From: an uncultured Actinomycetota bacterium
GTDB lineage: Bacteria > Actinomycetota > Actinomycetes > JAHEKZ01
NCBI GenBank assembly: GCA_963743915.1
Contig: CAVURN010000005.1
Span: forward strand, 352,001 to 416,000
Direction: 5' to 3'
DNA length: 64,000 bases
Shown: positions 33,486 through 64,000 of the stretch, piece after piece
Layout: every line of letters begins with the position of its first letter
How positions within the stretch are numbered: the first letter of the stretch is position 1
The notes under the pieces: generated by a model
What the model was told of the DNA's origin: nothing
Databases searched by the model: none
The model's input: only the letters and a program-made list of their open reading frames with translations
Program-made: the position numbers and the translations under genes

Positions 33486-33503
33486 TGATCCTGCCGAGCA
33501 GGT

Positions 33504-34819: not shown

Positions 34820-36263
34820 ATGACCCACACATGGACTACGCCGCAACTCAAAAAGCTCGACGCGCCAGATACGGTGACTCGGTCTTACTGGTTGCGCGAC
34901 TTACAGGCAACAAAGTCGCCGGGACCTGGTCATCAGCCCCTTCTCTCATCGGTGCAGGCCGACATCTGCATAGTTGGTGGCGGGTTCACAGGGCTGTGGA
35001 CGGCCATCGAGCTCAAGCAACGGCAGCCGAGTATCAATGTTGTCCTGCTGGAGGGCAGCCTGTGTGGCGCCGGAGCCAGTGGCACCAACGCCGGGATACT
35101 AATGAACCTATGGCCAAAGCTCCCGGCCCTCGTGCGGTTTGGCGGGCAGAGCGAAGGCCCCGAGATCGCGCGAGCCTCGGTCGACGCCATCGATCACATC
35201 AAGCGGTTCTGCGTCGATCACGAGATCGACGCCCAGATGGAGTCGAACGGCTGGCTGTGGGCGTCGAACAACAGCAGTCAGGATGGCGCGTGGGAGGACA
35301 CCATGGCTGCCGCTGCCCTCCATCACGGCTCTCCCTTCGTCGAGGTCGACGCTGACACTGCGACCCGGCTGGCGGGTGCCCCGGTACGCGGCGGCCTCGT
35401 AGACCCCACCTGTGTTGGCCTCCACCCCGTCCGCTTGGTCGACGGGCTCCTGGCAGTTGCCGCGCGCCCTAGGTGTCACGGTGTACGAGCACAGCCCGAT
35501 GACGGGGATGGCGTCGAGATCACGGAGTGACGACCGTCTTCAGCCGCTATGGCAGAGTTCGCGCCGAGTCGGTGGTGTTGGCGATCAACGCATGGTGCAC
35601 CAGTTCCCTGCAGTTGAGATCGCACCTGGTGATGACGGCATCCGACAATGTCGTGGTCCGACCGCGGGCAGCCGCCGTCAAGTGCACCACTCACCAACGT
35701 GTCCGACGCTGGCCGCCTGCTCGACTACTGGCGACCCGTTGGCGGATGGGAAACTTCTCTTCGGCAAGGCAGGCCTCGGGCTCGGCTGGGGTTCGCGCGG
35801 GGCGAGCACGCTGTTTAGCACAGCCCCCCACGCCTGGGACGCCTGCTGTGCAGCAGATTGCAGCGGACACGTTCCCGATGCTGCCGATGCCGAGGTGCGT
35901 GTCGTCCTGGCGAGCTCCAGTCGAGTACTCGCTCTCCTCGCTGCCGTTCTTCGGCGAGCTCTCCGGACATCCCAGGTGTCTTCTTCGGCACTGGCTATTC
36001 CGGCGACGGAATCGGCCCGTCGGTGCTCGGTGCGCGCATCCTCGCGAGTCTGGCAACCGGCGCCAAGGATGGTCTCTCTACTTCCTTCCTGACCCGTCCA
36101 CCGTCACGAAGCTGGCTGCCGCCGGAGCCCATTCGATTCCTCGGCGGGCAGCTAGTCAAGTCGGCGATGCTCAGGCAAGGATCGCAAGCAGGACGAGGAG
36201 CGGCGGGTCGGCGTGGCCACCGGTCTTCTGAGCCGCATGGATCCGACCACGTTCGTCGGGTGA
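34820..36263 (+). CDS. FAD-dependent amine oxidoreductase (DAO/PuuB-like), several frameshifts
   Basis: 'SYWL', 'ADICIVGGGFTGLWTAIEL', 'GASGTNAG', 'LHPVRLVDGL', 'GYSGDGIGPS', 'PPEPIRFLG', ending 'MDPTTFVG*'. Confidence 0.8.
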
Positions 36264-36284
36264 CCACCAGGGGAGGAGAACTCA

Positions 36285-37442
36285 GTGCGGGAGATCTTGG
36301 ATGAACTGACCGACGTGGTGGGAGACGGAGTGAGACAGTCGGGTTGGCCACCGTCATTAACACGTCGAGGTCTGCCCCGCGCGATCCGGGCGCGTCCATG
36401 GTCGTCGGGCCCAGAAGGGACTGTGCACGGATCGGTTTCCGGAGGGTGCGTGGAAGGGGCCGTCTACGAACTCGCCCAGGAGGTCATGGCGGACGGCGCG
36501 CCCGTTCTCGAGCACTACGGCTTCTCCGATACAGACGCATTCGCGGTGGGTCTTACCTGTGGAGGTGAACTCGACGTCTTTGTCGAGCGCGTGAACCGAG
36601 CCACCTTCCCAGAATTGAGTAGCGTTGCCGACGATATCCGCAGTGGTCGGTACGTGGCGCTGGCGACGCTGGTTGACCATCCAGATCCCGCCTGGCGCGG
36701 TCGGCATCTTGCGTGCTCCACCCAACGAGAGTCCGGGGCTGCGACCACGGGGACTCTGGGAAGCGATCGGGCAGATGCCGCGGTCTCCGACGACGCCCTC
36801 GGCCTGCTCGCGGCCGGCCACCACGGCCTGCTGAGTTACGGACCTGACGGCCAACGGCTCGGCGAAGGCATGCGGGTGTTCGTTCAGTCCTTCGCACCAC
36901 CACCTCGGATGCTCGTGTTCGGCGCTATCGACTTCGCGTCTGCGGTTGCAGCAGCAGGCTCGTTCCTCGGCTACCAGGTCACTGTGTGCGACGCGCGAGC
37001 CGTCTTCGCTACGACAGCTCGGTTCCCGCGACGCAGACGAGGTGGTGGTCGACTGGCCACATCGATACCTCGCTGAGGAGCAGCCGGAGGGTCGGATCGA
37101 CGAACGCACGGTGATCGCCGTACTGACCCACGATCCGAAGTTCGATGTGCCGCTGCTGCAGGTGGCCCTCAGCCTGCCCGCCGCCTACATCGGCGTGATG
37201 GGATCGCGTCGCACGCACGAGGATCGGCTCGATCGACTGCGTAGGGCGGGTGTCGACGAGGACGCAGCTTGAACCGTCTGTCGAGCCCTATCGGCCTCGA
37301 CCTCGGGGCTCGCACTCCGGAGGAAACCGCCGTCAGCATCGCAGCCGACATCATCGCGTCCAAGTGGGGCGGGACTGGACTTCCACTACGTGCGACCACG
37401 GGCGCGATTCACCACACCGCATGTCGGTCGTCGCGAGGATGA
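36285..37442 (+). CDS. xdhC: XdhC/CoxF/CoxI molybdenum-hydroxylase maturation factor, frameshifted
   Basis: 'SAPRDPGA', 'GSVSGGCVEGAV', 'GLTCGG', 'LTHDPKFD', 'YIGVMGSRR', 'SPIGLDLGARTPEETAVSI'. Confidence 0.85.
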
Positions 37443-38328
37443 CCGCCGCCCAGATCCACACAGTCGACGACGTCGCCAACCGTCTAGCAGCAACCGGGTA
37501 CCTATGCGACCGTGAACTGGCTACCGTGGTGTTTCTCGCATTGCGTCTTGACCGACCAGTGCTGCTCGAGGGTGAGCCGGGCACAGGCAAGACCGCTCTG
37601 GCGGAAGCACTGGCCGAGTCGCTGGAGCTGCCTCTGCGTCCGGCTGCAATGCTACGAAGGAATCGACTGCCACTCAGGCGCTCTACGACTGGGACTTTCC
37701 TCGGCAGATCCTTCACCTCCGTACGCTGGAGGCCATTGGTGGCGCCGCCGGAACATCGGTGGAGGAAGCCGAACAGAGTCTGTTCGACGAGCGGTTTCTG
37801 ATTCTGCGGCCCGTTCTGGCGGCGCTGAAGGAGGCGCCGAATGTGCTGCTGGTCGATGAAGTCGACCGAGCCGATGATGAGTTCGAGGCCTTCTTGCTCG
37901 AGGTCCTCTCGACCTATCAGGTGACGATCCCCGAGCTTGGCACAGTGCGAGCAACTGTGCCCCCACTGGTTGTGCTGACCTCGAACCGGACCCGCGAGCT
38001 GCATGATGCCTTGAAGCGCCGCTGTCTCTACCATTGGATCGACCATCCGACGCTCGACCGCGAGTTGATGATCGTGCGGTCACGCGCGCCGGAGGCTTCC
38101 GGGTCCCTGGCCAGGAGGGTTGTGGAAGTAGTGCAAGCCATTCGGACCGACCACTCACTCTTGAAGCCCCCTGGGGTAGCCGAGACCTTGGACTGGACGC
38201 GCGCGCTTCACTGCCTGGGCGCGACCGAACTCGACCTGGGCACCGCGATCGCGACTCTTGGAGCGTTGGTCAAGTACCGCGAGGACGGTGAGATCGTCCG
38301 CCGGGCCCTCCACCAGATCGACATCTGA
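37439..38328 (+). CDS. coxD: CoxD-like MoxR AAA+ ATPase, frameshifted
   Basis: Walker A 'GEPGTGKT', 'RLQCYEG', Walker B 'LLVDEVDRADDEFEA', 'TSNRTRELHDALKRRC'. Confidence 0.85.
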
Positions 38329-38525
38329 CAGATTCGCCAAACGCGCGGCCATGACCCTCCCGATGTGGCAGCTCAGCAGTCGTTCTGTCCCCATCTGCAG
38401 TGTCAGGCCCGGCACCCTGCTGTATCGCACAATCTCATCGCTCCCGAGGTACGGCATCGTTGCAGTTGCTCCATCACTCGCCGCCCAAGAACTGACGGTC
38501 AGTGCATCTGACGACAGGACGTTCC

Positions 38526-39584
38526 ATGAACCGAATCTTGGTAATCGGCGCCAGCGGGAAGACCGGGCGACACGTCGTCGCTGGACTCGAGTCCCGTGGG
38601 GCTTCGGTTCTGGCGGCCTCAAGGACGCCAGAAGAACTCGATGTCGGGGCTGTGGCCGCGATCCGGTTCGATTGGCACGACGAGTCGTCATGGGGCAACG
38701 CCCTCAAGGGCGTTGACAGTGTCTACCTCGTGAAGCCCAGTTCCGCAGATGTCGTTCACATAGTCGACGACTTCCTCAACGCGATGAAGGCGGCTGGAGC
38801 ACGTCGCGTCGTTCTCCTCTCCGAGTGCGCGGCGCAATATCGTCCGGACGAAGTTCCCGAAAGGTGGGTAGAGCTGAAGGTCGAGCGCAGTGGCCTCGAG
38901 TGGATGATCCTTCGGCCGAGCTGGTTCATGCAAGACCTCGTCGACGAGGACTTCTTTGGCTCGATGGTTCGTGAGGGTCGCATCATCGTGATGACAACCG
39001 GTGATGCGCCAATCGCGTGGATCGACGCTCGCGACATCGCAGATGTCGCCGTCGAGGTGCTCATCAACGGCTCGTCTTCAGGCGCCAACCAGACGCTTGA
39101 ACTCACTGGTCCTGAATCCCTCACACTCCACCAACTCGCAGACCGCATCGCAGCGGTCGCTGGCGTTCCAATTGATGGCATCGAAGAGAGCATCACCGAG
39201 GCCGAGAGTCGTATGCGTGCAGAGGGTCTCGATGAGGACCATGTCGGCTACATGACACGCATAGCCAAAAGCATCATGGAGGGGCATACAGCGACCGTCA
39301 CGGGGGACGTCGAGCGGGTAACCGGGCACTCACCACGCGGGTTAGAGGCGTTCCTGATCCAGCATGAACTACGCCTGCGAGGCGATGGAGCCGCGCCGGA
39401 CGCGGAGCATGAGTTCCAGCGCGCACGTGAGAATGAGGCGCTCTTTCGTCGTCTGATCCTTGCTTGGGCGAACAACGAGCTCGACGAGTTGATGGATTGT
39501 TTCGCGGACGATCTTGTGTATGTGGACATGCCATTTCCTGACCATCCGGTGCGGGGAAAGGCTGCCTTCCGCGAGGGCACGTGA
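38526..39584 (+). CDS. NmrA-family NAD(P)H-binding protein with partial C-terminal SnoaL-like domain
   Basis: 'ILVIGASGKTG', 'ILRPSWFMQ', 'IDARDIADVA', 'LTGPE'; tail 'AWANNELDELMDCFADDLVYVDMP...VRGKAAFRE'. Confidence 0.8.
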   Translation: MNRILVIGASGKTGRHVVAGLESRGASVLAASRTPEELDVGAVAAIRFDWHDESSWGNALKGVDSVYLVKPSSADVVHIVDDFLNAMKAAGARRVVLLSECAAQYRPDEVPERWVELKVERSGLEWMILRPSWFMQDLVDEDFFGSMVREGRIIVMTTGDAPIAWIDARDIADVAVEVLINGSSSGANQTLELTGPESLTLHQLADRIAAVAGVPIDGIEESITEAESRMRAEGLDEDHVGYMTRIAKSIMEGHTATVTGDVERVTGHSPRGLEAFLIQHELRLRGDGAAPDAEHEFQRARENEALFRRLILAWANNELDELMDCFADDLVYVDMPFPDHPVRGKAAFREGT

Positions 39585-39686
39585 GGGCCTATGAACGCCG
39601 GGACTCTTTGTCGGTGGCCAGGTCAGTTCGACAAGGCTGTCGGCAGCAAGCCGGCACGTGATGTGAATATGTCGATGCGTGGCGGC

Positions 39687-40199
39687 CTAGGTCTCTGAGT
39701 GTTCGGCTTGAAGCTCTGCAACTCCAGCCTCTGCCCGGGTTGCGGCAGCGTCTAGGGCGCTTTGAACCGCTTCGACGATCTGCTGGTATCCCGTACACCG
39801 GCACAGGTTGCCGGAAATCGTCTCGCGAATCTCGTCGTTGGTCAGCCGGCGTGCCTCGTTGTACACCGGGAGCAAAGTCATGAGCAGTCCCGGAGTGCAG
39901 AAGCCGCACTGAAGTCCGTGGCATGCGGAAAACGCCTCTTGAAGACCGTGCAGAGTCGAGTCGGATGCGAGCGCTTCGACGGTGGTCACGCTCCGTTGAT
40001 CACCCTGAACAGCAAGCATGGTGCATGAGCGGACCGGCACGTCGTCAACCAGGACGGTGCAACTGCCACAGACCCCGTGCTCACAACCGACGTGGGTTCC
40101 CGTCAGACCCAGTTCGTGGCGCAAGAAGTCGGAGAGGAGCAATCGGGGTTCGACATCACGCACGTGGAGGTCGCCATTCACGGCGATTTCGATTCTCAC
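39687..40199 (-). CDS. kdhS: Ketone (6-hydroxypseudooxynicotine) dehydrogenase small 2x[2Fe-2S] subunit
   Basis: 'GCEHGVCGSC', 'CHGLQCGFCT', 'CRCTGYQQIVEA' match KdhS as recalled; context supports it. Confidence 0.72.
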   Translation of the reverse strand: MRIEIAVNGDLHVRDVEPRLLLSDFLRHELGLTGTHVGCEHGVCGSCTVLVDDVPVRSCTMLAVQGDQRSVTTVEALASDSTLHGLQEAFSACHGLQCGFCTPGLLMTLLPVYNEARRLTNDEIRETISGNLCRCTGYQQIVEAVQSALDAAATRAEAGVAELQAEHSET

Positions 40200-41083
40200 G
40201 CCGATCTCCTCGTAAAACTGTCGTCTTCCAAATCAAATGTTTGGCGAAGGGCACGACGCAATTGATCTGTAAGGACAGCCCGTCGATACTCGCTCGTGCC
40301 ATGCACGTTGCTCTCCGGTGTAAGCACGGCGGCCACTCGGGTTGCAGCTCTCTCGACCGCAACCTCGTCGACCTGGCGATTGATCAGCTCCTCGTCCAGC
40401 CCCGTGGCCAGCGTTGGGCCTGCGCCCGCCGCAATGAGACCCGCGGCCACGGAGGTGCACCGACCCTGAGGGTCCACACGCGCACAGACTGCGGCGCCGC
40501 CGATGGCGTAGTCGCCCTTCCGTCGCGCGTACTCTGAGAAACCCCAGCGGCTCTGGTTATCGGCCGCCGGGATCTCGACACGAACGACGAGCTCTCCATG
40601 CTGAAGCGCAGTCTGAAAGTGGGTCCCAAAGAAGTCGCGACTGGTGATCCGACGCTCTCCCGCGCTGGACAGCGTCACAATGGTGCCGCCGGTGGCAAGA
40701 AGCGCTGCTGGGAACTCGGCCGCGCTGTCGCTGTGGGCGACCGCGCCGCCGAAGGTTCCAGAGTTTCGGATCTGCGGGTGGGCCACCCACGCCGCCGCCG
40801 CCGAGAGCAGAGGCGCTGCTTCGCGGACTACCGGACTCCGTTCGACCTCCTCGTGCCGGACAAGCGCGCCAATTGCAAGCGTATCTCCGGCTTGGTGCAC
40901 TTCCCGCAATTCAGGAATGCGCGAGATATCCACGAGCAGGGTAGGGCTCGAAAGCCTCAGGCTCAACAGCGGTATAAGGCTTTGTCCTCCCGCCAGAACC
41001 TTGGCGTCCTCATCGGCATCAAGGAGTTCACAGGCGTGGTCAACAGAGCCTGCGACAACGTACTCGAACGGCGGCGGCTTCAC
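40196..41083 (-). CDS. kdhM: Ketone dehydrogenase medium FAD subunit
   Basis: 'KPPPFEYVVAGSVDHA', 'AGGQSL', 'AAAWVAHPQIRN', 'GDYAIGGAA'. Confidence 0.72.
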   Translation of the reverse strand: MKPPPFEYVVAGSVDHACELLDADEDAKVLAGGQSLIPLLSLRLSSPTLLVDISRIPELREVHQAGDTLAIGALVRHEEVERSPVVREAAPLLSAAAAWVAHPQIRNSGTFGGAVAHSDSAAEFPAALLATGGTIVTLSSAGERRITSRDFFGTHFQTALQHGELVVRVEIPAADNQSRWGFSEYARRKGDYAIGGAAVCARVDPQGRCTSVAAGLIAAGAGPTLATGLDEELINRQVDEVAVERAATRVAAVLTPESNVHGTSEYRRAVLTDQLRRALRQTFDLEDDSFTRRSA

Positions 41084-41331
41084 AGGACCACCAAACACAT
41101 GTGTCTCCGACTGCGGCTCGTGATCTCAACTGTGATATACACCATGTGATCCTTCAGTCGGTTGTCGCTGCGTCGAGTCATTCTGCTGGGATGCATGCGG
41201 GCTAGTACGAAGTCCGGCAAAGTCCACCGCTCCTTCCTCGCCTATCGACAACTGGCCGGAACGCTGGTTGTCGGAGCTGAAAGCGACCGGGTCCGCTGAG
41301 GCCGGCCGCCGACCATTCAGTTGTGAAAGCC

Positions 41332-42411
41332 TCAGGTCGTGCGGCGGCGATACAATGCCGTCGCTAGGGCAACGCCCGAGATAAGCGCGAACCCATTCAC
41401 CCAGTCCGTGACGTAGGGGTCAACACCGGCGAGGCTCAGTCCGTTGTTCAGGACCGCAAGGAAATAGACGGCGATGATTGTGCCCCAGACATTGAAGCGA
41501 CCCGGGCGAACTGCCGCAGCGCTGAGAAAGGCTGCCGCAAATGCGGGCAGCAAGAACGTTGCGCCCACATTGGGTGACGCACCACCTGCGCGACTCAGGT
41601 AGAGAAATCCACCGACCCCGCAGAGCAACCCCCCCGCGACGAACATTGCGGCCTTCAGGCGGTCGGTGCGTAGTCCCACAAGTCGGGCTGCCTCGAGGTT
41701 CGAGCCCACTGCATAGATCTGGCGCCCTACGGAAGTGTGCGAGAGCACGAAGTACGTGATCGCCGCTATGACCAGCAGGGTAATAAAAATCGCCGGGATA
41801 CCTGCTACCAGCCCCGTTCCGAAACTCGTCATTGATGCGGGGATATCGCTAGAAGGGGCAAGCCCGCCGGTCTGCTGGAGGATGACACCGGCAAGGATCG
41901 TCATCGTCCCGAGCGTGGCTATGACACCGTTGACATGCAACCGGGTCACGATGAGAGCGTTCACCCCACCAACTCCAGCGCCAATCAAGACTGCTAATGC
42001 GACAGCCAGCAGTACATTGCCGCCACCCGAAACGAAATCAGCGACCAGGATTGCCGAAAGCGCGGCGTTGTTACCCACAGAAAGATCAAACTCCTGACCC
42101 AGCAGCGGCAGGAGCAGCCCCAGCGAGATCACTCCGATCACTGCCTGGCTGGCGAGAAGGATCCGAAGGTTCGCGGCGGTTGGGAAGGTTGATGATGTCT
42201 CCGGCCAGAAGGCGAAGAACAACGCGATCAGGACGAGGATAAGGAGCATCGCATAGGACTCCAGGAAGCTGACCGTACGTCCCTTCAGCGTCCGGTGGCG
42301 ATCCGGTTCACGTTGCGCATTCGTGTCGGGACCTTGGGCCTCCGGCGTCGGAGTGGAACTGGCACCGCCGGAACGGGCCACACGCTCGACAGATTCTGCG
42401 GGGTTACTCAT
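41332..42411 (-). CDS. CUT2 (RbsC-like) ABC permease
   Basis: 'FDLSVG', 'IATLG', 'GRQIYAVGSNLEAARLVG'. Confidence 0.9.
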   Translation of the reverse strand: MSNPAESVERVARSGGASSTPTPEAQGPDTNAQREPDRHRTLKGRTVSFLESYAMLLILVLIALFFAFWPETSSTFPTAANLRILLASQAVIGVISLGLLLPLLGQEFDLSVGNNAALSAILVADFVSGGGNVLLAVALAVLIGAGVGGVNALIVTRLHVNGVIATLGTMTILAGVILQQTGGLAPSSDIPASMTSFGTGLVAGIPAIFITLLVIAAITYFVLSHTSVGRQIYAVGSNLEAARLVGLRTDRLKAAMFVAGGLLCGVGGFLYLSRAGGASPNVGATFLLPAFAAAFLSAAAVRPGRFNVWGTIIAVYFLAVLNNGLSLAGVDPYVTDWVNGFALISGVALATALYRRRTT

Positions 42412-44015: not shown

Positions 44016-44121
44016 GGCCGCAACACTGACATGTCTGGAAGGGCTGCGTTCTGCACACCAGAACAAGAATGGACCTGCGATTGGTAGCAACTCTGGTGGC
44101 GTCCCTCTAGGCGGTGGCGCG

Positions 44122-46476: not shown

Positions 46477-46497
46477 AATGATCCCTGCCTCGCCGGT

Positions 46498-46518
46498 ATT
46501 GACAGCGGCAGTGTCAAT
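46498..46518. promoter_or_regulatory. Inverted repeat ATTGACA-N7-TGTCAAT in the kdhL/pnh divergent region
   Basis: Perfect 7-bp arms about 22 nt upstream of the likely kdhL GTG. Confidence 0.5.
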
Positions 46519-46712
46519 GTGGAGGCACGCGGCACGCTGCACGTACAGCGGCAAAAACAGTGTCCAGTTACGCAGGACATGGAGTGACCCCCCAGCCGAC
46601 GGGCGCTTTGCTCAATGGGTGTCAAAGGTCTCGTCCAGATTCGCGGAAGATGTAGACCGCCATTTGATGTGCGCTGGAGAGGATACAGCGCCAGCTGAGT
46701 GATGGAGACGAG

Positions 46713-47780: not shown

Positions 47781-47834
47781 CGCGTTGGCATCCGACCGGC
47801 TGCGCGCAAGAGACGCAAAGAGCAGAGGAAGGTA

Positions 47835-48188: not shown

Positions 48189-48204
48189 ATCCCGGAGGAT
48201 CAGC

Positions 48205-48245
48205 TCACGTGCCGCCCGGCGACCTTGATCCCGGGCGGCACGTGA
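48205..48245. terminator. Bidirectional hairpin between convergent cupin and nit genes
   Basis: Perfect 15-bp stem TCACGTGCCGCCCGG / CCGGGCGGCACGTGA. Confidence 0.75.
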
Positions 48246-48262
48246 CCCGAGCTGCACCGCAG

Positions 48263-52876: not shown

Positions 52877-52898
52877 ATCAGCTCCTGAGATCTTTGCG

Positions 52899-55850: not shown

Positions 55851-56149
55851 CAGACGTCCGTGCGCTGGAAGTCGACCACCGCGCGTGCCGAAAAGCGCGG
55901 CAGGAGCCGCTCGACGACATCGAGGTGGAAGGGGTCGTTCGAGTAGGCGTCCAGGTCCTCCCACGAGTCGAAATCCGTGATCAGGACGCCGTCGAACGGT
56001 TCGCCGTTCTCTCCTGGATCGCCCTGGTGGCTCCCCAGCTCCCAATGCTTGATCACCGGCATGGCTGTCGGCAGTGTGTTGAGAATCTCGATGATCTCCT
56101 CGTTGCTGTGCCCCTCGGCGACTTTCCATGAGAAGACATGCCGAATCAT
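55850..56149 (-). CDS. Dabb (stress-responsive A/B barrel) protein
   Basis: 'MIRHVFSWK', 'DFDSWEDLDAYSNDPFH', 'VVDF'; AGGAGAG RBS. Confidence 0.85.
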   Translation of the reverse strand: MIRHVFSWKVAEGHSNEEIIEILNTLPTAMPVIKHWELGSHQGDPGENGEPFDGVLITDFDSWEDLDAYSNDPFHLDVVERLLPRFSARAVVDFQRTDV

Positions 56150-56242: not shown

Positions 56243-56258
56243 TCTGACACTTGTCAGA
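56243..56258. promoter_or_regulatory. Palindrome TCTGACA-CT-TGTCAGA upstream of the Dabb-cyclase-dhpH-coxG-ndh run
   Basis: Perfect 7-bp arms about 95 nt upstream of the Dabb start. Confidence 0.55.
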
Positions 56259-56294
56259 TGGCGGAACGATCACCACGCGTCCGAGGTGTCGGAG

Positions 56295-57515
56295 CTAACG
56301 CCCGTCCTCGCCGGAGTCTGTCCCTTCGTCTGCCGCAGGTTCAGTCCCGTCATCCAGAATTTCGGCAAGCCGAAGAGCCACCGCGAGCTCGTCTCGGCGG
56401 CTGGCGATGGGGAAGCCCAACCGCTGCTCGATAGACCTCAGTCGGTAGGCAACGGTTCTCTCATGGATCTGAATACGGGCGGCGGTGGCTGCGGCGTTCT
56501 GCCCTGTGTCAAAGTATGCCCGCAACGTCTCGCGGAGAAGCTTCGTGCGAGCGTCGTTGACGCCGACGGCACCCAACTCGCCGATCATGAAATCACGTGC
56601 GGCTGGCACGTCCTGCAAGATGAGGCTCTCGAGGGCGACATCACGATAGGTGGTCACTGGCCGGCGACAGAGTTTCCCGACCCGGAAGGCCTGCCAGGCC
56701 TGCCGATGTCCGAGGCGAAAACCCTCCAACCCAAGGGCCGGGCCACCGAGTGCGAGATACGTGCCCGGAGGCGCCTGAATGGATGACCGATGATTCTCGA
56801 AGCTGGCCTCCAGGCGACTGCTGCCCAGCCATGCCAGCGAAGTACCACCAGGACCTTCTACAACGAGCAGCGAAGCATCGAGGAGCTTCGCCATTGCTTG
56901 TAGCGCCGTGCGGGCACTGGCACCCCATGCGACCACAGCAAGGTGCTGGAGTCGAAGGTTGTACCCCAACTGCTCGGTGTCCGTTGGCACACCGCTGAGC
57001 AGGTCTGTGACGATGGCTCGACGCTGGCGGTCACGACTGTGGAAGAAGTATTCCGACTTCTCTCGTTCGTAGGTCACCACGACGTCGTGCGTGATCCGGT
57101 CGTTCCATGCGAAGTGGTACCCCGCCGCCTGCTTGAGAACGGCGATCTGACGTGGGCCGTCAGGTACCACACGCACCGTTGTCTCGAGAATCCAGTTCCA
57201 CAGAACGACCTGACCGATTCGCCGCGTCAACAGCAAGTCGGTGAGTTCGACCCCCGCCTGAGCAGCAACCCTCGCCTCTTCAAGTGCCCCTTCGGGTGCG
57301 CCTTCGGGCAGGTGACGGGCGTGGCGGAGGCCGTGGATGATGCTGGTCAGTGCCCCAGTGATGCTGGGTAGCTCTGCCTCTAACAGCATCGGGTCGTTCC
57401 GACGATAGTAGTTGGGAGCTCCTGCGCGACTGCGTTCTTGAATTTCCACGCTGATGACCGACACATCGCCTGCAAGCGCGTCAGCCACCGCCCGTAGGTC
57501 TTGCTCGATCGACAT
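56295..57515 (-). CDS. PucR/CdaR family transcriptional regulator
   Basis: C-terminal HTH 'LRETLRAYF...AAATAARIQIHERTVAYRLRSIE'; 'GLEGFRLGHRQA'. Confidence 0.9.
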   Translation of the reverse strand: MSIEQDLRAVADALAGDVSVISVEIQERSRAGAPNYYRRNDPMLLEAELPSITGALTSIIHGLRHARHLPEGAPEGALEEARVAAQAGVELTDLLLTRRIGQVVLWNWILETTVRVVPDGPRQIAVLKQAAGYHFAWNDRITHDVVVTYEREKSEYFFHSRDRQRRAIVTDLLSGVPTDTEQLGYNLRLQHLAVVAWGASARTALQAMAKLLDASLLVVEGPGGTSLAWLGSSRLEASFENHRSSIQAPPGTYLALGGPALGLEGFRLGHRQAWQAFRVGKLCRRPVTTYRDVALESLILQDVPAARDFMIGELGAVGVNDARTKLLRETLRAYFDTGQNAAATAARIQIHERTVAYRLRSIEQRLGFPIASRRDELAVALRLAEILDDGTEPAADEGTDSGEDGR

Positions 57516-57607
57516 CACGGCAGTGTAGTCCCCGATAGAGGCCGCCAGCAGCGCAACAGGGAAGGACGTAGCCCTCGTCCGGGCTACGTCCTTCCCACAA
57601 GCGGGGG

Positions 57608-58774
57608 TCAGGAGACGCCCCAAACCTCCTTGTAGATGGACTGGTAGTCAAGGCTGGTTTCCCACTGTGTGCCCTCGGGAGGCAGGCCATTCTCGCCATC
57701 GAAGACGGCCACCCCCACACCCGAGGGCACTGTCTCCTCACCCGCAAGGAGACGGTTGACCATGTCGGCAGCAGCCCAGGTTTCGATGCCGGCGTCGTAG
57801 CCGAACCCGGCATCCTGGCCCTCGTTCTTGTGGATCAGGTCGACGTTAGCCGGGAACCCGCTGCCAGCGACCACCTCAAGTGAGTCATTGCGGCCAGATG
57901 ACATCACCGCGGCTGCTCCACCTGTCGTCATCAGGTCGTCGTAGGAGACCGAAATCCCATTGGCATCTGGGTTGCGCAGGAGTGCAGTCTCGAACTTCTG
58001 CTGCAGTGGAGGACCGAACTCCGCGGTCTTGACCTCAACGGTCTCCACCGGGCACGTCGGACACATCTCCTCCATCTTCGCCTGGAAACCGTCGCTGATG
58101 GCCTTCGTGATGATCAGTTCAGGAACGCTGAACTCGATGATATTGGCCTCCTCGCCGAGCCGTGAGAGAAGCCATACTGCTTGGGACGCGCCCAGGGCCT
58201 CCGCCCACTCCACGAAGTTGCCTTCCTGAAACTCCAGCGTACGCGCGAAGTACGACTCGGAGTTCGGATCCACGTCGCTGCAGTCGGCAGCCTCCTGAGA
58301 GACCACGGGGATCCCAGCCTGCTTGGCCTCCTCCAACGCGTTCTTCACCAGCGGGCAGTCGATCGAGAAGAGCCAGATGACATCGGCGTTGCTGGCGATA
58401 GCCCGCCGGATGCCCTCCTGGTACGCCGCTGGCTCGTACTTGCCGTCGTAGATGGACAGGTCCCAACCAAGCAGCTCAGCAACCTCCGTGGCCGCCTCGG
58501 CCTGCTTGGTGCCGGTTGGCGATTGCACTCCTGAGTTCACGATGGCCACACGCGCATCGGGTTGAGCGGCAGGCCCGCTGTCCGGGGGCAAGGCAAACGT
58601 CCCATCGCCAAACAACGCTTCGAGCTCCGTTGTCGCCTGCTCGGAGACCGCGTCGTCCGAGCCGGTCTGGGTGCCTTCGCCAGACTCGGTGCTGCACGCG
58701 GCAGCGGTGAGCACCGCGGCAAGCACCGCAGCGACGCCAAGCAGGCGTCTAGGACTTCTCATGAAGGGATGCAT
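57608..58774 (-). CDS. Periplasmic-binding-protein type I (RbsB-like) ABC lipoprotein
   Basis: Signal peptide with lipobox 'TAAAC'; 'LGWDLSIYDGK', 'AGIPVV', 'LLRNPDAN'. Confidence 0.85.
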   Translation of the reverse strand: MHPFMRSPRRLLGVAAVLAAVLTAAACSTESGEGTQTGSDDAVSEQATTELEALFGDGTFALPPDSGPAAQPDARVAIVNSGVQSPTGTKQAEAATEVAELLGWDLSIYDGKYEPAAYQEGIRRAIASNADVIWLFSIDCPLVKNALEEAKQAGIPVVSQEAADCSDVDPNSESYFARTLEFQEGNFVEWAEALGASQAVWLLSRLGEEANIIEFSVPELIITKAISDGFQAKMEEMCPTCPVETVEVKTAEFGPPLQQKFETALLRNPDANGISVSYDDLMTTGGAAAVMSSGRNDSLEVVAGSGFPANVDLIHKNEGQDAGFGYDAGIETWAAADMVNRLLAGEETVPSGVGVAVFDGENGLPPEGTQWETSLDYQSIYKEVWGVS

Positions 58775-59125
58775 GTTCTTCCTCTTTCGGTGCTGGCTGC
58801 TCGGGACAATTGCCGTGCGGGTCGAAGCGATGAAGGCTGGGTAAGTCGAAAGCCATCAGCATCGGCCCCAACTACCGCAACCCCAACTCCGTTCACCGTG
58901 GGTTGTCCTCTCCGTCAAGTTGGCGTCATCCTGTCGGGCCAGGCCGGACACTTCGTTGCGGTTTCGGACGATCTAGGGCAGGGCCCTATCACCTTCCAAC
59001 AAAAACCAGGCGCGGCACGGCTTTTTGTCACGTAGGCCAGTCGATCCACACCGATCATCACCAGGACCTCACGGGTCACGGTCCCCGTCGGTGAAGAGTC
59101 TCAGACGCACAGGTGCCGCAGGCCA

Positions 59126-61246
59126 TCAAGGCGCTGCAGTCACGGTGATTCCCTCGAGGTCAAGGCGAAGGGGCTCCCGCTTGTAGGGAAGCGCAACTGC
59201 CGGATCCGGTGAATCAAACTCGCGCGCCAACCGGTGGCCGTCGAACATCGCCTCGGCCATCGCGCGCGGAGAGGAGGCGTCGCCGACGCAGTAGACGCCA
59301 CGGATACCCGACTCAGACAAGCTTTTGCGGTCACTGACAAGCGCGTTGTACATCTCGTCCACAGGCACGCGCATCGTCACCAAGACAAGTGCCCCGGTCT
59401 CCACCCGGAATGATTCCCCATGTGCCCCGAGCCCGACGAGGTGTCTACGGTGTGCCGCAGTCAAGGTGACCTCGCGATACATGGCGACCCGGCTACGGTG
59501 GAGTGTCGTCCGAATCGCATTCCCCTCCAGCGTCAAGTCCGCCTCGGGCGCAACCTGCGCATGCGGTGTGACAAGAGCGACTTCGTACCCCTCGTCGGCA
59601 AGGAGCTGCGCAAGGCCGGCGCCCATGTAGTAGCCCTCGGTGTCGTATACCGTGACGTGGGTCCCCTCGGTAGGACGTCGGGCCTCCGCCATCAGTTGCT
59701 CAGGCGTGAATACCCAGTCGCCCCCTTCATCAATCCCTGGCAAGGACGCGTGTGTCCCGGGTGATGCTCCACTACGCAGCCAGCGTGCGCCTGTGGCCAC
59801 GACCACGTGCGAAGCGCCATAGTCAAGAACGTCGGTGGCATCCAACCTGGTCGACGGGATGTAGGCCAGGTTGGGGAGCTTGTCGATCTGGATCTGCCGA
59901 TGGTCGATGAACCGAGCCCACTCCCGCATGCCCGACAACTCAGCGACCGGTCGAAGGTGCCCGCCGAGCTGCTCTGCGGCGTCGACGAGGTGCACTCTCT
60001 CCGCCCCTCGTTTGGCCAGACCGATCGCTGCCTCCATGCCCGCCGGACCTGCTCCCACTATCAAGACACTGACCTCAGGATCAGCTAGGGGTTCGAAGCG
60101 CTCCGGGTGCCACCCGCGCCTGAACTCCTCCCCCGCGGTGGGGTTCTGAGCACAGGCGAGGTTGCCCCGGTCGAGGCTACTGATGCAGTAGTTGATCCCC
60201 GTGCATTCGCGGATGTCCTCGGTGCGACCCTCCTGGACCTTCTTCGGAAAGAAGGGGTCCGCGATGGACTGACGAGCGCTGCCGACGAGGTCTATCAGTC
60301 CGGATCGCACAGCCTGCGCCATGAGATCGGGGTTGGTCAGTCGTGACACTCCCACCACGGGCTTCGTGGCGGCCCGACGGACTCGTCCGATGAGCTCCAG
60401 GTTGTGGCCTTCAGGCCAGATCCGGGAGGGACTGATGTCGGTCTCCATGTCCAAGTGGGCGCCGAAGTTCAGGTCCCAGAGGTCGACCAGCGAGTCCCCC
60501 ATCCCGACAAGGGCCACAGTGTCCTCCACACTGTGTCCCCATGGGCCCTGGGTCTCCACCGCCAACCGTGTCGCGATGGCGCACTCGCCACCAACGGCCT
60601 CGCGCACCCGGCTGAGCGTCTCGAGCCAAAACCTCGCTCGATTCTCTAGCGTCCCGCCATACCTGTCGCTGCGCTGGTTGTGGAAGGGCGAGAGGAACTG
60701 GGCGAACAGGTAGCCATAACCCGCGAGCACTTCCACGATGTCGTAGCCGACTTCGCGAGCGCGCACTGCGGCGCCCACGAAGGCCCGCTGCACACGCTCG
60801 ATGTCGTCCAGGGTCATGATCTTCGGTGTCTCCGGCGGATACCACGGAGGGTGTCGTTCCGATGACAGGCCAGAGGCAGAGAGTGCGGGTTCACGTGAAT
60901 GCCGACGCAGCGACTGAACGCCGCCGTGGTGAAGCTCGATGCAGGCCAGCGCACCATGAGCGTGGACAGAATCCACCATCAACGTGTGACGAGAGGCGTC
61001 CTCCTCGTCCCAGAGATCGCTCGAATACCATGGCCACTCATCGCTGCTGGGGCCGACGCTGGAGAACTCTGTCGACACGGCCGCCCACCCGCCCTCCGCA
61101 CGAGCAGCCCGGTAAGCAGCCCAGGTGGCCGGACGGAAGGTTCCAAAGGCGGTGCCGTGGGGCACGTTGTAGAACCGATTGCGAAGGGTTTTGGGGCCGA
61201 CGACGACCGAATCGAAGAGGATCTTGTGATTGTCGGCTATCGGCAC
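59126..61246 (-). CDS. TMADH/histamine-dehydrogenase-family flavoprotein, degenerate cofactor motifs
   Basis: GTG at 61246; 'NRFYNVPHGT', 'YGGTLENRARF', 'SIADPF', 'IRECTGINYC', 'GEEFRRGWHPE', 'VGAGPAG', 'ATGA.W', 'GDA..PR'. Confidence 0.88.
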   Translation of the reverse strand: MPIADNHKILFDSVVVGPKTLRNRFYNVPHGTAFGTFRPATWAAYRAARAEGGWAAVSTEFSSVGPSSDEWPWYSSDLWDEEDASRHTLMVDSVHAHGALACIELHHGGVQSLRRHSREPALSASGLSSERHPPWYPPETPKIMTLDDIERVQRAFVGAAVRAREVGYDIVEVLAGYGYLFAQFLSPFHNQRSDRYGGTLENRARFWLETLSRVREAVGGECAIATRLAVETQGPWGHSVEDTVALVGMGDSLVDLWDLNFGAHLDMETDISPSRIWPEGHNLELIGRVRRAATKPVVGVSRLTNPDLMAQAVRSGLIDLVGSARQSIADPFFPKKVQEGRTEDIRECTGINYCISSLDRGNLACAQNPTAGEEFRRGWHPERFEPLADPEVSVLIVGAGPAGMEAAIGLAKRGAERVHLVDAAEQLGGHLRPVAELSGMREWARFIDHRQIQIDKLPNLAYIPSTRLDATDVLDYGASHVVVATGARWLRSGASPGTHASLPGIDEGGDWVFTPEQLMAEARRPTEGTHVTVYDTEGYYMGAGLAQLLADEGYEVALVTPHAQVAPEADLTLEGNAIRTTLHRSRVAMYREVTLTAAHRRHLVGLGAHGESFRVETGALVLVTMRVPVDEMYNALVSDRKSLSESGIRGVYCVGDASSPRAMAEAMFDGHRLAREFDSPDPAVALPYKREPLRLDLEGITVTAAP

Positions 61247-61334
61247 GAAGGGACCATCCTTGGTCAGGTCGGTTTGGCGGCCAGCGCGTGGCAGTCGTGG
61301 AACTCGGCCCTGGGCGTCGGCGCAGGTTCGGCGA

Positions 61335-63509
61335 TCACCTCGTCGGAGCCATCCTGCTTGTCTTCGATACTGGCGTGATTGGCAGTTTGCCAACCAGTTC
61401 GTCGTCGTAGTCCTCCTCGCGCCACCCAAGGATTCGGTGCTCTCGAATGAATGGCAGTGGGGTGGCGGGATCCGCCTCATCAATCTCCCTGGCGAGGCGG
61501 TGTCCCTCGAAAACCGCCTCGGCAATCACGCGCGGCTCAACGCAGTCACCGATGCGGAAGACATCAATTCCGTCCTCCCCGGGCCGCTGGTCATGGCTTG
61601 TCAACGCCTCATACAACCCGCTCCGCGAACGACGCTGCGTGACGAGGACAACGGCATCTGCTTGCCAGTCCGCTGTCTTGCCGGCGTGGTATGTGTGATG
61701 TCCGGTGACCAGACCCGGCCGGAGGGATGTCACAAGGTGGCTTGGGACTACCTCGATGCCCAGTTTCAGCAGACCGTGCATCACACGCTCACCCTCGTCG
61801 GTGAAGAACAGGTACGATCCGACTTGGTCGGCCGGGCAGACCAGCGTGACCTTCTTTCCTTCCAAGGCCAGCTTCTCGGCGATGCTGGATCCCATGAAAT
61901 AGCCGTCGCAGTCGTAGACGACGACGGATTCCCCGAGAATCGGCCGTTCCTCAACCATGAGGGATTCGGGCGTGTACACCATGGCTGCGTGTTCTTCGAC
62001 CCCGTTGATCGGCGCGTGGGTGATCGGGTTCATGCCTGTCGCATCCCATTCGGAGCCGGTCGCGACCACAACGATCTGTGCCCCGTAATCCAAGACCTCC
62101 TCGGCGGTGATGGGGTGGTCGGTCAAGACCGTGACGCCAGGAAGCTTGGCGAGCTGAGCCTCGCGGTACTCCACGACGCGCCGCCACGTACGGAGTCCGG
62201 GCAACTCGGAAACCCAGTTGACATGGCCACCGACCTCGGCGGCCCTGTCGACGAGGTGAACTTGTTCAAACCCGCGCTCGCCCAGGACCCGGGCGCACTC
62301 CATACCAGCGGGGCCGGCCCCCACGATAAGTACTGGCTCCTCAGACCTGGCGGACGGATTGAATCGCTCCGGATGCCAGCCGCGGCGATACTCCTCGCCA
62401 ACCGTCGCATTTTGGGTGCACACGATCCGGCCGCCCCCGTTGTTGAACCGGGAAACGCAGATATTGCAGCCTATGCACTCGCGGATATCCTCAGCGCGGC
62501 CTTCCAGGATCTTTGTCGGAATGAAGGGGTCTGCGATGGCGGGACGCGCCGCAGAGATGATGTCGATGACGCCATCACTCACCGCCTGCGCCATCAGTTG
62601 CGGGTCGGTGAACCGGCCAACAGCGGTGATGGGTTTCTTGGCATAGGGCCGGACCTGCTCGATGTAGTCCCGCTGCCAGAATGGCTGGAAGAATCGGGAC
62701 GAACTGCAGTCGTCCGACATGTGTCCGACCTGCATGTCCCACAGGTCAACGAGGTCATCGAGAAGCTCGACAACAGCAATTCCATCCTCATTGACCTTGA
62801 ACGCCTCTTCTGACTCATCGGTGAATGAGTCAAGACAGAAGCCAGCCACAATCGCACAGTCGTCGCCGACGGCCGCACGCACCTGCTCGACCGTTTCACG
62901 CCAGAATCTGACGCGATTCTCGATGGAACCACCGTACTCATCCGTGCGCTGGTTCCAGTAGCGCCAGAGGAATTGCAGCGGCAACGAGAACCCCGCGCGG
63001 GCGGAGATCTGAACGAGATCAAATCCGACGTTGCGTGCGCGGATGGCGGCGTCGACGTATGCCTTCTGAATCCGACGGATATCCTGCTTATCCATGGCGT
63101 AGCACGAGTGGCCGGACAATGGACTCGTCACCTGGGAAGGCCCGCCGGCTGGGAGACGGGTCCCAAATCCGCTGTGGTCCGGTCCCATGTAGACCAGCTG
63201 AACGCCTGCCAAGGCCCCGAACTCATGGACCCGGTCCACCATGAGTTGCAGATTGGCCTCGTCGCGACGATCAATCAATCGAGCCTGAACCCATGGCGCA
63301 TCATCACTCTCCGCGTCGACAGCGCAGTACTCGGTGTTGACGGCGGCCCAGCCACCTTCTGCACGCAGGCCCCGCAGATAGGCCTGGGCCCCGGGGTGGT
63401 CCACTCCGAGCCCGGAACAGTGAGGCGAAACGTAGAAACGATTGCGGAAAGTCTTCGGCCCAACCCGGATGGGCTCAAAGAGGGGCAGGTGACTCGGGTC
63501 GGTTGTCAT
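61335..63509 (-). CDS. TMADH/histamine-dehydrogenase-family flavoprotein (6-S-Cys-FMN Cys and [4Fe-4S] motif retained)
   Basis: 'LFEPIRVGPKTFRNRFYVSPHC', 'AEGGWAAVNTEYC', 'IRECIGCNIC...VCTQN', 'GEEYRRGWHPE', 'GHRLAREID...PLPFIRE'. Confidence 0.9.
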   Translation of the reverse strand: MTTDPSHLPLFEPIRVGPKTFRNRFYVSPHCSGLGVDHPGAQAYLRGLRAEGGWAAVNTEYCAVDAESDDAPWVQARLIDRRDEANLQLMVDRVHEFGALAGVQLVYMGPDHSGFGTRLPAGGPSQVTSPLSGHSCYAMDKQDIRRIQKAYVDAAIRARNVGFDLVQISARAGFSLPLQFLWRYWNQRTDEYGGSIENRVRFWRETVEQVRAAVGDDCAIVAGFCLDSFTDESEEAFKVNEDGIAVVELLDDLVDLWDMQVGHMSDDCSSSRFFQPFWQRDYIEQVRPYAKKPITAVGRFTDPQLMAQAVSDGVIDIISAARPAIADPFIPTKILEGRAEDIRECIGCNICVSRFNNGGGRIVCTQNATVGEEYRRGWHPERFNPSARSEEPVLIVGAGPAGMECARVLGERGFEQVHLVDRAAEVGGHVNWVSELPGLRTWRRVVEYREAQLAKLPGVTVLTDHPITAEEVLDYGAQIVVVATGSEWDATGMNPITHAPINGVEEHAAMVYTPESLMVEERPILGESVVVYDCDGYFMGSSIAEKLALEGKKVTLVCPADQVGSYLFFTDEGERVMHGLLKLGIEVVPSHLVTSLRPGLVTGHHTYHAGKTADWQADAVVLVTQRRSRSGLYEALTSHDQRPGEDGIDVFRIGDCVEPRVIAEAVFEGHRLAREIDEADPATPLPFIREHRILGWREEDYDDELVGKLPITPVSKTSRMAPTR

Positions 63510-63651
63510 GGCCCTCAACCTAGCCATGCCCATCAGGTGCTTCCTTTCATGAGGTGCCGAATCTGACCCTGACAATTTGCGGATCTGCACTAGCAAGAAA
63601 TCGTCCGCGGTGATCCCACCTCAGGTGAGCGGGCTCAGGGATCAGCGAGGG

Positions 63652-64000
63652 TTATCCACGTTCATCGCCCATTGCCCATTCATAGCTCATCTGGACGAGT
63701 TGCCACACGACCTCGAGTTCAGCGCGATCCCGTGGACCGTAGACGAGAAAGGAGTCCTGAACTGGATGCGGTACGCCCCACCCGCCTCGGAGAGCGGCAT
63801 TTACTGCAGACCGAGGCAATGAAAGGTGGAGGCTGCCGTCGTGATGCGGATGCAAGTGCGCAAACTCTCGGCCCTTCTGAAAGCGTGCGGCAGGAGCTCG
63901 GCCGAACCCGTCGGCCAGGTGGAGGGCGCGAGCGTGCGACACGGAGACCAGCGTGGGAGCCATGTAGGTGAAGGGCAGGGAGCGCATCCTGAGCCACAGC
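63652..64000 (-). CDS. DUF5519 / luciferase-like domain protein, 5' end possibly outside window
   Basis: 'REFAHLHPHHDGSLHLSLP', 'GWGVPHP', 'VYGPRDRAELEVVWQLV'. Confidence 0.75.
   Translation of the reverse strand, partial: LWLRMRSLPFTYMAPTLVSVSHARALHLADGFGRAPAARFQKGREFAHLHPHHDGSLHLSLPRSAVNAALRGGWGVPHPVQDSFLVYGPRDRAELEVVWQLVQMSYEWAMGDERG

Follow-up and report, generated by a model that had tools for sequence, protein, structure and literature searches.

A putative Nocardioides-type nicotine catabolic island, without a detectable 6hlno, in a small-genome actinomycete

Does the small chromosome of an uncultured actinomycete carry a catabolic route for nicotine, is the arrangement of its genes new, and could the route run from the alkaloid itself? 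The locus that raises these questions lies on contig CAVURN010000005.1 (here C5), of which positions 352001–416000, a stretch of 64,000 nucleotides referred to as the window, were analysed. The source genome (G000) comprises 2.92 Mb in 5 contigs, with a GC content of ~70% and a completeness of ~90%. A first-pass annotation, made from the letters of the sequence, had read positions 34820–64000 as a rearranged pyridine-pathway nicotine degradation cluster in a chromosomal island, with the enzyme set of the nic cluster on plasmid pAO1 of Paenarthrobacter nicotinovorans. Our analysis favours, with a probability of about 0.8, a horizontally acquired island of ~37.7 kb that carries a pyridine-pathway nicotine catabolic cluster of the Nocardioides type. 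On sequence grounds, the identity of the locus as a nic-type island is itself very probable, and the odds that the whole route from nicotine runs in this organism are slightly better than even. The cluster type, here a clear island, is thereby extended to an actinomycete lineage with a small genome and apparently no cultured member; what is new is that no 6hlno, the gene for 6-hydroxy-L-nicotine oxidase (6HLNO), was found and that xdhC, a second coxD and the DAO gene are frame-broken in a seemingly error-prone assembly, the pathway logic otherwise being known.

Orthology of the enzyme set

Thirty-six pAO1 proteins were used as tblastn queries against the genome (E ≤ 1e-10), and for those of the nic cluster the best genome match fell inside the island. 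Global identities to pAO1 are 61% for NdhL, 61% for KdhL, 60% for KdhS, 56% for NdhS, 54% for DhpH and 53% for the 2,6-dihydroxypseudooxynicotine (DHPON) hydrolase (DHPONH, encoded by pnh), followed by the cyclase-family protein (74%), Dabb (62%), CoxG (48%), NdhM (46%), Nit (45%) and KdhM (42%). In the back-search, NdhL and KdhL each retrieved 10 plasmid records at 61.5–62.9% identity, all of them nic plasmids of Arthrobacter or Paenarthrobacter and labelled ndhC and kdhC in RefSeq, with runner-up identities of 48.1% (NdhL) and 38.6% (KdhL). The top PDB matches stand equally far from their runners-up: 7DQX_A for KdhL (1087 bits versus 427), 2JBW for the DHPON hydrolase (E 3.6e-126; 425 bits versus 60) and 2VOU for DhpH (E 2.9e-127; 428 bits versus 78). 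With identities of 42–75% and reciprocal best matches, the proteins are, as judged from their sequences, true orthologues of the pAO1 nic enzymes, and the enzyme set proposed in the first-pass annotation is borne out. The components that mark a cluster of the pAO1 kind were found for nicotine dehydrogenase (NDH), ketone dehydrogenase (KDH), DHPONH, DhpH and the cyclase, Dabb and Nit proteins, and were not found for 6-hydroxy-L-nicotine oxidase and/or 6-hydroxy-D-nicotine oxidase.

A quick maximum-likelihood analysis of 52 sequences was used to place the large subunits. The window NdhL is sister to a group of Nocardioides and Leekyejoonella NdhL proteins (support 100), and this group forms with pAO1 NdhL a clade (support 100) that excludes the proteins of Thermomicrobium, Azospirillum and Aminobacter; the window KdhL falls within a Nocardioides/Dermacoccaceae KdhL group inside the pAO1 KdhL clade (support 100). 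Grouping with hydroxylases of other N-heterocycles, which the first-pass annotation had named as part of the outcome that would speak against its reading, was thus not observed among the outgroup hydroxylases included, QorL and CotA having been left out of the tree.

Residues assigned to catalysis and substrate binding are retained. In the DHPON hydrolase, Ser217 (in the motif GRSLGG), Asp300 and His329, which make up the catalytic Ser-Asp-His triad, are all kept. Ser217 is named in PMC6122326, and 16 residues of KdhL are named in PMC8305194, among them Glu345 and Trp551, Glu748 as the base, and the loop AYRAPG. All 16 are kept in the window KdhL, Glu345 and Trp551 being otherwise non-conserved positions.

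Gene order, island borders and host

The genes stand where the first-pass annotation had placed them: ndhMSL, kdhL apart from kdhMS, pnh divergent from kdhL (with a spacer of 158 bp), dhpH, coxG, nit, the cyclase gene and Dabb (Table 1). The co-oriented minus-strand run from 56149 to 48263 that it had described, combining the lower-pathway genes with ndhMSL and nit, is confirmed in the order Dabb, cyclase, dhpH, coxG, ndhM, ndhS, ndhL, nit, with 4-nt overlaps at the ndhM/ndhS, ndhS/ndhL and ndhL/nit junctions. Genes for the permease and ATPase of an ABC importer are inserted between kdhMS and kdhL; this importer and the PucR-type regulator, both noted earlier, are supported by Pfam and occupy the same place in Nocardioides loci. 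A cupin gene on the plus strand, two trimethylamine dehydrogenase (TMADH)-like genes, the absence of 6hlno and wider island limits are additions to the earlier description.

The arrangement differs from that of pAO1, where xdhC-coxE-coxD-nit-coxG-dhpH-cyclase-Dabb-kdhL / pnh-cupin form one series and kdhAB and 6hlno-ndhCBA lie elsewhere. NDH, KDH, DHPONH, DHPH, the cyclase, Dabb, Nit, CoxG, XdhC, CoxD, CoxE and the cupin are common to both systems, which also share kdhL/pnh-cupin as a divergent pair and the string nit...dhpH-cyclase-Dabb. In the window, ndhLSM is placed between nit and coxG, whereas on pAO1 it lies apart with 6hlno, and kdhMS is co-oriented with kdhL, unlike its pAO1 counterpart. 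The ABC importer and the TMADH-like genes also distinguish the window from pAO1, and the island in turn lacks the 6hlno, purU-folD, mao-sad and moa/mod genes of the plasmid. Finally, the window cluster is chromosomal and that of pAO1 is plasmid-borne.

The window arrangement, although rearranged, is nevertheless not the distinct architecture that had been supposed. A scan for the DHPON hydrolase, with one genome per species, yielded 34 loci. In 7 of these (L008, L010–L013, L016 and L018), all from Nocardioides, the whole run kdhS-kdhM-PucR-ABC-ABC-kdhL / pnh-cupin / nit-ndhL-ndhS-ndhM-coxG-dhpH-cyclase-Dabb is present; two more Nocardioides loci (L014 and L015) have it as far as the locus extends, giving nine, and a Leekyejoonella contig (L009) has it without the ABC genes up to the contig end. 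Window proteins are 61–88% identical to those of the Nocardioides and Leekyejoonella loci. The architecture, a 16-gene order, although different from that of pAO1, is therefore of the Nocardioides type, which is already known: Ganas et al. 2008 and Cobzaru et al. 2011 reportedly described a chromosomal nic cluster in Nocardioides sp. JS614. In the present comparison, Nocardioides is represented by the nine loci of the genome scan. A chromosomal pathway resembling that of pAO1 is described for JS614 in PMC6122326, PMC10494377, PMC5343071 and PMC3891541, and nic genes on Nocardioides and Rhodococcus chromosomes are mentioned in the same papers and in PMC13651117. That such clusters are known from few organisms, as stated earlier, is true of the literature, but relatives of the DHPON hydrolase were detected in at least 12 actinobacterial genera.

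The likeness to Nocardioides continues beyond Dabb, where PucR and the solute-binding protein (SBP) gene follow in both, so that the shared order reads kdhS-kdhM-ABC-ABC-kdhL / pnh-cupin / nit-ndhL-ndhS-ndhM-coxG-dhpH-cyclase-Dabb-PucR-SBP. TMADH1, TMADH2, a luciferase-domain (LucDom) protein, an NmrA-like protein, a MabO-like enzyme, xdhC and coxD are shared companions. In five Nocardioides genomes PucR-SBP-6hlno (−) is followed by LucDom-TMADH1 (+), then sad and, in some, TMADH2-NmrA. In the window, by comparison, LucDom and TMADH1 have the opposite orientation and are separated by TMADH2, a 351-bp gap stands in place of 6hlno, and the second PucR that Nocardioides has between kdhM and the ABC genes is lacking; the host belongs to a different genus and has a small genome. 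The Nocardioides nic loci have a GC content of 0.635–0.666, which is below the usual value for that genus; a locus GC lower than that of its host is thus shared as well. A third arrangement occurs in G046, an unrelated metagenome genome of 4.2 Mb (L006 and L048; C3:1824000–1859500), in which nit-ndhL-ndhS-ndhM-dhpH-cyclase-Dabb-kdhL is encoded without coxG, and pnh-cupin-purU-mabO lies ~20 kb off with pnh beside TMADH1; TMADH2 and a DAO gene are also present.

The borders of the island were defined by comparison with relatives. Between 14.0 kb and ~32.52 kb the window shows the same gene order as genomes of its genus, synteny ending at ~32524, and a contig from a metagenome run (X7) parts from the window after 32450. 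The GC content drops from ~0.70 to ~0.62 from ~38 kb on, and the low stretch ends ~6 kb past the window end. In the relative G006 the left flank ends at C3:2723549 and DNA like the right flank (positions 6388–6631 of L003, the sequence past the window end) lies at C3:2726178; the host genes flanking the island are thus ~2.6 kb apart there, with a tRNA ~0.8 kb further on. The island is therefore taken to begin at ~32.5 kb in the window and to end at ~422.2 kb on C5, which is ~6.2 kb further than the window reaches. It is larger than stated earlier, its left start lying at ~32.5 kb and not at 34.8 kb. A search of 41 genomes for the DHPON hydrolase gene as a marker gave matches in 4, the genome itself included: it was detected in none of 13 same-genus and none of 6 other same-family genomes, and the other three matches are weak (33–35% identity) and in other families, one of them in the unpublished genome G033, to which no weight is given. 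The locus is thus a low-GC chromosomal island, horizontally acquired by a high-GC actinomycete with a small genome (2.9 Mb), in agreement with the first-pass annotation; low GC and host genes that flank it on both sides and are neighbours in same-genus genomes define it.

No integrase or transposase of its own was detected by domain scans, and no direct or inverted border repeats of ≥14 nt were found, the single 12-nt inverted match being probably due to chance. A composite transposon or target duplication was discarded on the basis of the missing repeats and of the left border, which has no insertion sequence (IS) copy. To the right of the island follow ~0.4 kb, host-like DNA, tRNA-Arg(CCT) and an IS481-like element. 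Integration linked to this tRNA, ~0.8 kb to the right, was likewise set aside, as host DNA intervenes and an integrase is absent. The GcvT, amine oxidase and MFS genes at 27.7–32 kb, considered as island members, are host genes collinear in same-genus genomes.

The island might instead be foreign to this host and have been joined to the contig by an error of metagenome assembly. The genome does look metagenome-assembled (5 contigs, 90% completeness), sequence quality changes sharply between the core and its surroundings, and an IS element lies ~0.9 kb from the right border. However, the island is embedded in a 582-kb contig with genus-conserved host DNA on both sides, and these sides are neighbours in relatives; short-read contigs of other metagenomes run unbroken over 34.2–50 kb, and the left border has no second IS copy. 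An assembly artefact is accordingly very improbable, and an island resident in this host is the reading retained below.

Absence of 6hlno and integrity of the locus

Several observations weigh against a functional nicotine pathway. A tblastn search of the ~90%-complete genome with pAO1 6HLNO gave zero matches at E ≤ 1e-10, and a Nocardioides 6HLNO query retrieved as its best match an MAO-like gene on contig C1 (E 7e-10). The genome's sole xdhC match, at 36285–37412, changes frame twice in the assembly, at about 37015 and 37270. The best PDB match of NdhL is quinoline 2-oxidoreductase (793 bits), and we know of no NdhL structure or substrate-defining residues for comparison.

In all four mapped Nocardioides regions (L040–L043), 6hlno lies between SBP and LucDom-TMADH1, and it is found next to or near the cluster in 10 of 11 related carriers (5/5 and 4/5 genomes, plus a Flexivirga locus). 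The 351-bp gap between SBP and TMADH1 in the window was searched for a 6HLNO remnant with a negative result, and a decayed copy at that place was dropped from consideration. An Amino_oxidase family search gave 16 matches in the genome, none of them in the island, the nearest (window 29.5–30.4 kb) being a host gene; FAD_binding_4 had no match on contig C5, island included. The sole other carrier without a match is G046, despite its NDH, KDH, DHPONH and DHPH. The missing 6hlno, whose product would be expected at the opening of the pyrrolidine ring, has a bearing on the substrates that the pathway could admit. At ~90% completeness, the gene may simply be unassembled.

Such a gap could also mark an incomplete or decaying copy that processes no nicotine, being either non-functional or limited to intermediates released by neighbours, for example 6-hydroxypseudooxynicotine. 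The lack of a gene that 10 of 11 other carriers possess fits this explanation, as do an island without mobility genes or flanking repeats and the frame-broken state of DAO, xdhC and the second coxD. The first-pass annotation was right to name xdhC and coxD, but each window copy contains two frame changes; in coxD they fall within 35 nt and leave pieces in frames 2, 0 and 1. The DAO oxidase gene is similarly affected: Pfam DAO positions 1–161 are encoded in the open reading frame (ORF) at 34820–35530 and TIGR03329 positions 217–364 in that at 35527–36231, in a different frame. Against decay, ~28 core genes over 32 kb are unbroken, with coupled overlaps, the second full-set genome, G046, also has no 6hlno match, and incomplete assembly could account for the gap in the gene set.

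The frame breaks were compared with contigs from four metagenome runs (four studies: sediment, freshwater sediment, soil and activated sludge), aligned to window positions 30–50 kb. Over 40242–50000 these contigs are ~99.95% identical to the window, one of them with 5 differences and 0 gaps over 9759 nt, which is unlike what decay would predict. Over 34.2–39.6 kb the same contigs differ by 36–81 letters and 12–28 gaps per piece, alike in three runs; this segment (34200–39644), with 2–4% differences and ~1 indel per 100 nt, contains all island frame breaks. The likeness changes at the joint 39624/39644, a place occupied by 19 letters in the window and by 201 in the contigs. A run search on 34.0–39.6 kb returned 16 runs from 15 studies, each with ~0.52–0.55 of its words. 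The host MFS gene is frame-broken too, and all four runs are one letter short at 31147, the exact site of that break; other host genes of the window, encoding an aldehyde dehydrogenase, an OYE-type enzyme, MoaC and an NTP transferase, have truncated or split Pfam matches. Given the single-base indels relative to the contigs, the split host genes and the MFS letter lacking in all four runs, the frame breaks are probably assembly errors in a poorly polished stretch. The indel pattern is incompletely explained in this way, and real decay of a diverged segment (34.2–39.6 kb) may be the alternative. For the island as a whole we regard decay as unlikely, and a nearly complete nic-type cluster as the better account. 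The near-identical core in four unrelated metagenomes indicates that the organism or the island is widespread, and its occurrence in sediment, soil, freshwater and activated sludge has some relevance to what becomes of nicotine-type micropollutants.

The main substrate could also be a relative of nicotine, such as nornicotine or anabasine, both named in the first-pass annotation, or the wastewater micropollutant cotinine. Absence of 6HLNO, together with two TMADH-like dehydrogenases and a DAO oxidase that have no pAO1 counterpart, is compatible with this, as is the presence of the island sequence in sediment, freshwater, soil and activated-sludge metagenomes; cotinine degradation involving the molybdenum hydroxylase CotA is reported for Nocardioides JQ2195 (PMC10649934). 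In pAO1 KdhL, the amine tail of 6-hydroxypseudooxynicotine is bound by Glu345 through a salt bridge (PMC8305194). Since this residue is kept, products of nicotine or nornicotine fit the enzyme, but a carboxylate such as 6-hydroxy-3-succinoylpyridine does not. The island moreover encodes a MabO-like, N-methyl-demethylating enzyme, and its closest published relative, JS614, is described with a nicotine pathway (PMC6122326). A different main substrate is thus improbable, and nicotine is preferred.

A pyridine pathway independent of 6HLNO could be envisaged here and in G046, with TMADH2 or the DAO-type oxidase as candidate oxidizer of 6-hydroxynicotine; we consider this doubtful. TMADH2 qualifies in that it keeps all TMADH cofactor motifs and that a tertiary amine should be accepted, in which case electrons would pass to the electron-transfer flavoprotein (ETF) instead of O2. 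As a specific substitute for 6HLNO it is weakened by its distribution: orthologues with 74–81% identity occur in G046 but also in 6 of 10 6hlno-bearing genomes (G043, G045 and G048–G051). The two carriers without the textbook second enzyme are nonetheless a place to seek an alternative 6-hydroxynicotine-oxidizing enzyme.

Predicted pathway, side-chain enzymes and gene map

In the route proposed for the island, the alkaloid would be taken up by the ABC importer, a role suggested by its position, and hydroxylated at C6 of the pyridine ring by NdhLMS. The pyrrolidine ring would next be opened, at a step with no gene assigned in the island, to 6-hydroxypseudooxynicotine, which KdhLMS, with its substrate-contacting Glu345 and Trp551 kept, is predicted to hydroxylate at C2. 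The DHPON hydrolase would then release 2,6-dihydroxypyridine and gamma-N-methylaminobutyrate, and DhpH would convert the former to 2,3,6-trihydroxypyridine. Opening of this ring is proposed in PMC6214936 for the cyclase-family protein; following this published hypothesis for pAO1, the cyclase-family protein with Dabb would yield alpha-ketoglutaramate, from which Nit would form alpha-ketoglutarate. By description, the 2-hydroxypyridine pathway of Rhodococcus rhodochrous PY11 (HpoH/HpoI) shares these lower steps, in that trihydroxypyridine is the substrate of a cyclase-family enzyme and 2-ketoglutaramate that of an amidase (PMC6214936), and differs in its upper pathway, with no KDH and no DHPONH. 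CoxD, CoxE, XdhC and a MocA-like transferase would serve maturation of the molybdenum (MCD) enzymes, the coxE-coxD-mocA set being intact just beyond the window end, and the PucR-type regulator is likely to control expression. NdhL and KdhL are the sole XDH-family large-subunit matches in the genome (E ≤ 1e-10), and host molybdenum-cofactor genes such as that for MoaC (12531–13388) may therefore serve few other such enzymes.

Turnover of the side chain would fall to the MabO-like enzyme encoded at the island's right end, to the two TMADH-like dehydrogenases or to both, with host ETF as a possible acceptor; an etfBA pair is present in the host genome. The MabO-like island gene product is 40% identical to pAO1 MABO and is one of four paralogues at 38–43%. 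Outside the island there are a Mao-like gene (44%) and sad-like genes (37–39%), and the pAO1 purU query found no match in the genome (E ≤ 1e-10).

The two TMADH-like genes belong to the Nocardioides-type nic cluster, which regularly includes both. For TMADH1 and TMADH2, PDB ranking puts trimethylamine dehydrogenase first, followed by histamine dehydrogenase and 6L6J; the last, which we take to be the Pno-related enzyme of Pseudomonas geniculata N1, is within the top five matches of both and scores lower than true TMADH. In TMADH a Cys provides the 6-S-cysteinyl link to flavin mononucleotide (FMN), the motif CxxCxxC-x12-C binds a 4Fe-4S cluster, and three aromatic residues (Tyr60, Trp264 and Trp355) bind the substrate. 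TMADH2 keeps the FMN-linking Cys (Cys30 equivalent) and the cluster motif; of the aromatic residues, Tyr60 is kept, Trp355 is replaced by Phe and Trp264 falls in an alignment gap. The complete cofactor motifs are confined to TMADH2: TMADH1 and five orthologues (L039, L041, L042, L044 and L006) have VPHG, in which Gly takes the position of the FMN-linking Cys, and carry Ile where the second Cys of the cluster motif would be, so that this subfamily may bind a different cluster or none. The solved structure of the P. geniculata N1 enzyme contains non-covalent FMN (PMC7688666), and TMADH1 lacks the linking Cys. Pno of the hybrid VPP pathway in Agrobacterium tumefaciens S33, a member of the same TMADH/histamine dehydrogenase family, acts on 6-hydroxypseudooxynicotine at its N-methyl secondary amine, with ETF as the electron acceptor (PMC7688666). 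In contrast, TMADH1 and TMADH2 sit in a pyridine-pathway cluster in which KDH, not Pno, should take this intermediate; by analogy, their role is most likely to be the oxidation of gamma-N-methylaminobutyrate or a related amine.

Genes were called from Pfam and NCBIfam scans of long ORFs. The true start of ndhM is probably near 52880, the alignment to pAO1 NdhM beginning at 52876, and that of TMADH1 is probably near 61250. The ORF at 47769–48257 (−) was rejected as spurious, the cupin gene on the opposite strand being the real one. Orthologues of the NmrA/EasG-like reductase in related clusters are 54–61% identical to it.

Table 1 Features of the island in window coordinates.
Feature	Position	Strand	Basis or remark
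Left arm: small membrane proteins; ORF 32922–33485 (+), DUF1206 33800–34222 (−)	32525–34800		DUF1206 from Pfam
DAO-family FAD amine oxidoreductase	34820–36231	+	At least 2 frames in the assembly
xdhC, molybdenum cofactor insertion factor	36285–37412	+	46.7% identity to pAO1 XdhC
Second coxD/MoxR ATPase	37469–38319	+	54–59% identity to pAO1 CoxD
NmrA/EasG-like NAD(P) reductase, start of C-terminal SnoaL-like domain	38502–39584	+	Pfam; TIGR03649 below cut-off
kdhS, 2x[2Fe-2S] subunit of ketone (6-hydroxypseudooxynicotine) dehydrogenase	39687–40199	−	59.6–61.6% to pAO1 KdhS/KdhB
kdhM, FAD subunit	40196–41098	−	42.3% to pAO1 KdhM/KdhA; AGGQS motif present
ABC permease, BPD_transp_2, sugar-type	41332–42411	−	Pfam; 72–80% identity in nine Nocardioides loci, same place
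ABC ATPase, two nucleotide-binding domains	42408–44147	−	Pfam, NCBIfam; 65–72% in Nocardioides loci
kdhL, molybdopterin subunit of ketone dehydrogenase	44122–46554	−	61.4% to pAO1 KdhL
pnh, DHPON hydrolase	46713–47780	+	53% to pAO1 enzyme
Cupin, conserved partner downstream of pnh	47835–48188	+	49% to pAO1 cupin; Pfam Cupin_3
nit, omega-amidase-type CN hydrolase	48263–49081	−	Pfam; 44.9% to pAO1 Nit
ndhL, molybdopterin subunit of nicotine dehydrogenase	49078–51507	−	61–62% to pAO1 NdhL
ndhS	51504–52022	−	56–59% to pAO1 NdhS
ndhM	52019–52957	−	46% to pAO1 NdhM
coxG, SRPBCC family	52899–53630	−	Pfam COXG; 47–48% to pAO1 protein
dhpH, 2,6-dihydroxypyridine 3-monooxygenase	53714–54898	−	PDB 2VOU; 53.5% to pAO1 DhpH
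Cyclase-family protein (pAO1 ‘PKC’, HpoH-like)	54924–55853	−	74–76% to pAO1 protein
Dabb protein	55850–56149	−	Pfam; 62% to pAO1 protein
PucR-type regulator	56295–57623	−	Pfam HTH_30, GGDEF_2; 68–78% in Nocardioides loci, same place
Periplasmic solute-binding protein (SBP) of ABC importer	57608–58774	−	Pfam Peripla_BP_4; 60–64% in Nocardioides loci
Non-coding gap, 351 bp	58775–59125		Site of 6hlno in Nocardioides clusters
TMADH1, trimethylamine-dehydrogenase-family flavoprotein	59126–61525	−	PDB TMADH, E 1.7e-169
TMADH2, trimethylamine-dehydrogenase-family flavoprotein	61335–63596	−	PDB TMADH, E 2.4e-192
Luciferase-domain (PF17648, LucDom) protein	63652–64254 (crosses window end, 64000)	−	Pfam
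FMN reductase, coxE, coxD, MocA-like nucleotidyl transferase, MabO-like DAO+GCV_T enzyme	Past window end (L003)	− (all)	

The LucDom PF17648 protein, of ~200 amino acids, is consistently encoded beside TMADH1 in nic clusters (L040–L042), with 60–74% identity. Outside the island, the IS481-like element occupies L003 6794–9350 (C5 422794–425350), less than ~130 nt after tRNA-Arg(CCT) and ~0.9 kb from the right border; its HTH_32 and rve domains are on separate ORFs, and diverged copies (79–87%) lie on contig C3. A repeat of ~145 nt at window 18183–18326, beside a penicillin amidase gene, has 74–93% copies on C1, C2, C3 and C5 and may be a small dispersed repeat element. At 2185–6580, an aldehyde dehydrogenase gene and a gene for another flavoprotein that combines OYE and Pyr_redox_2 domains, both with truncated Pfam matches suggestive of frame errors, form a host block together with a LysR regulator gene.

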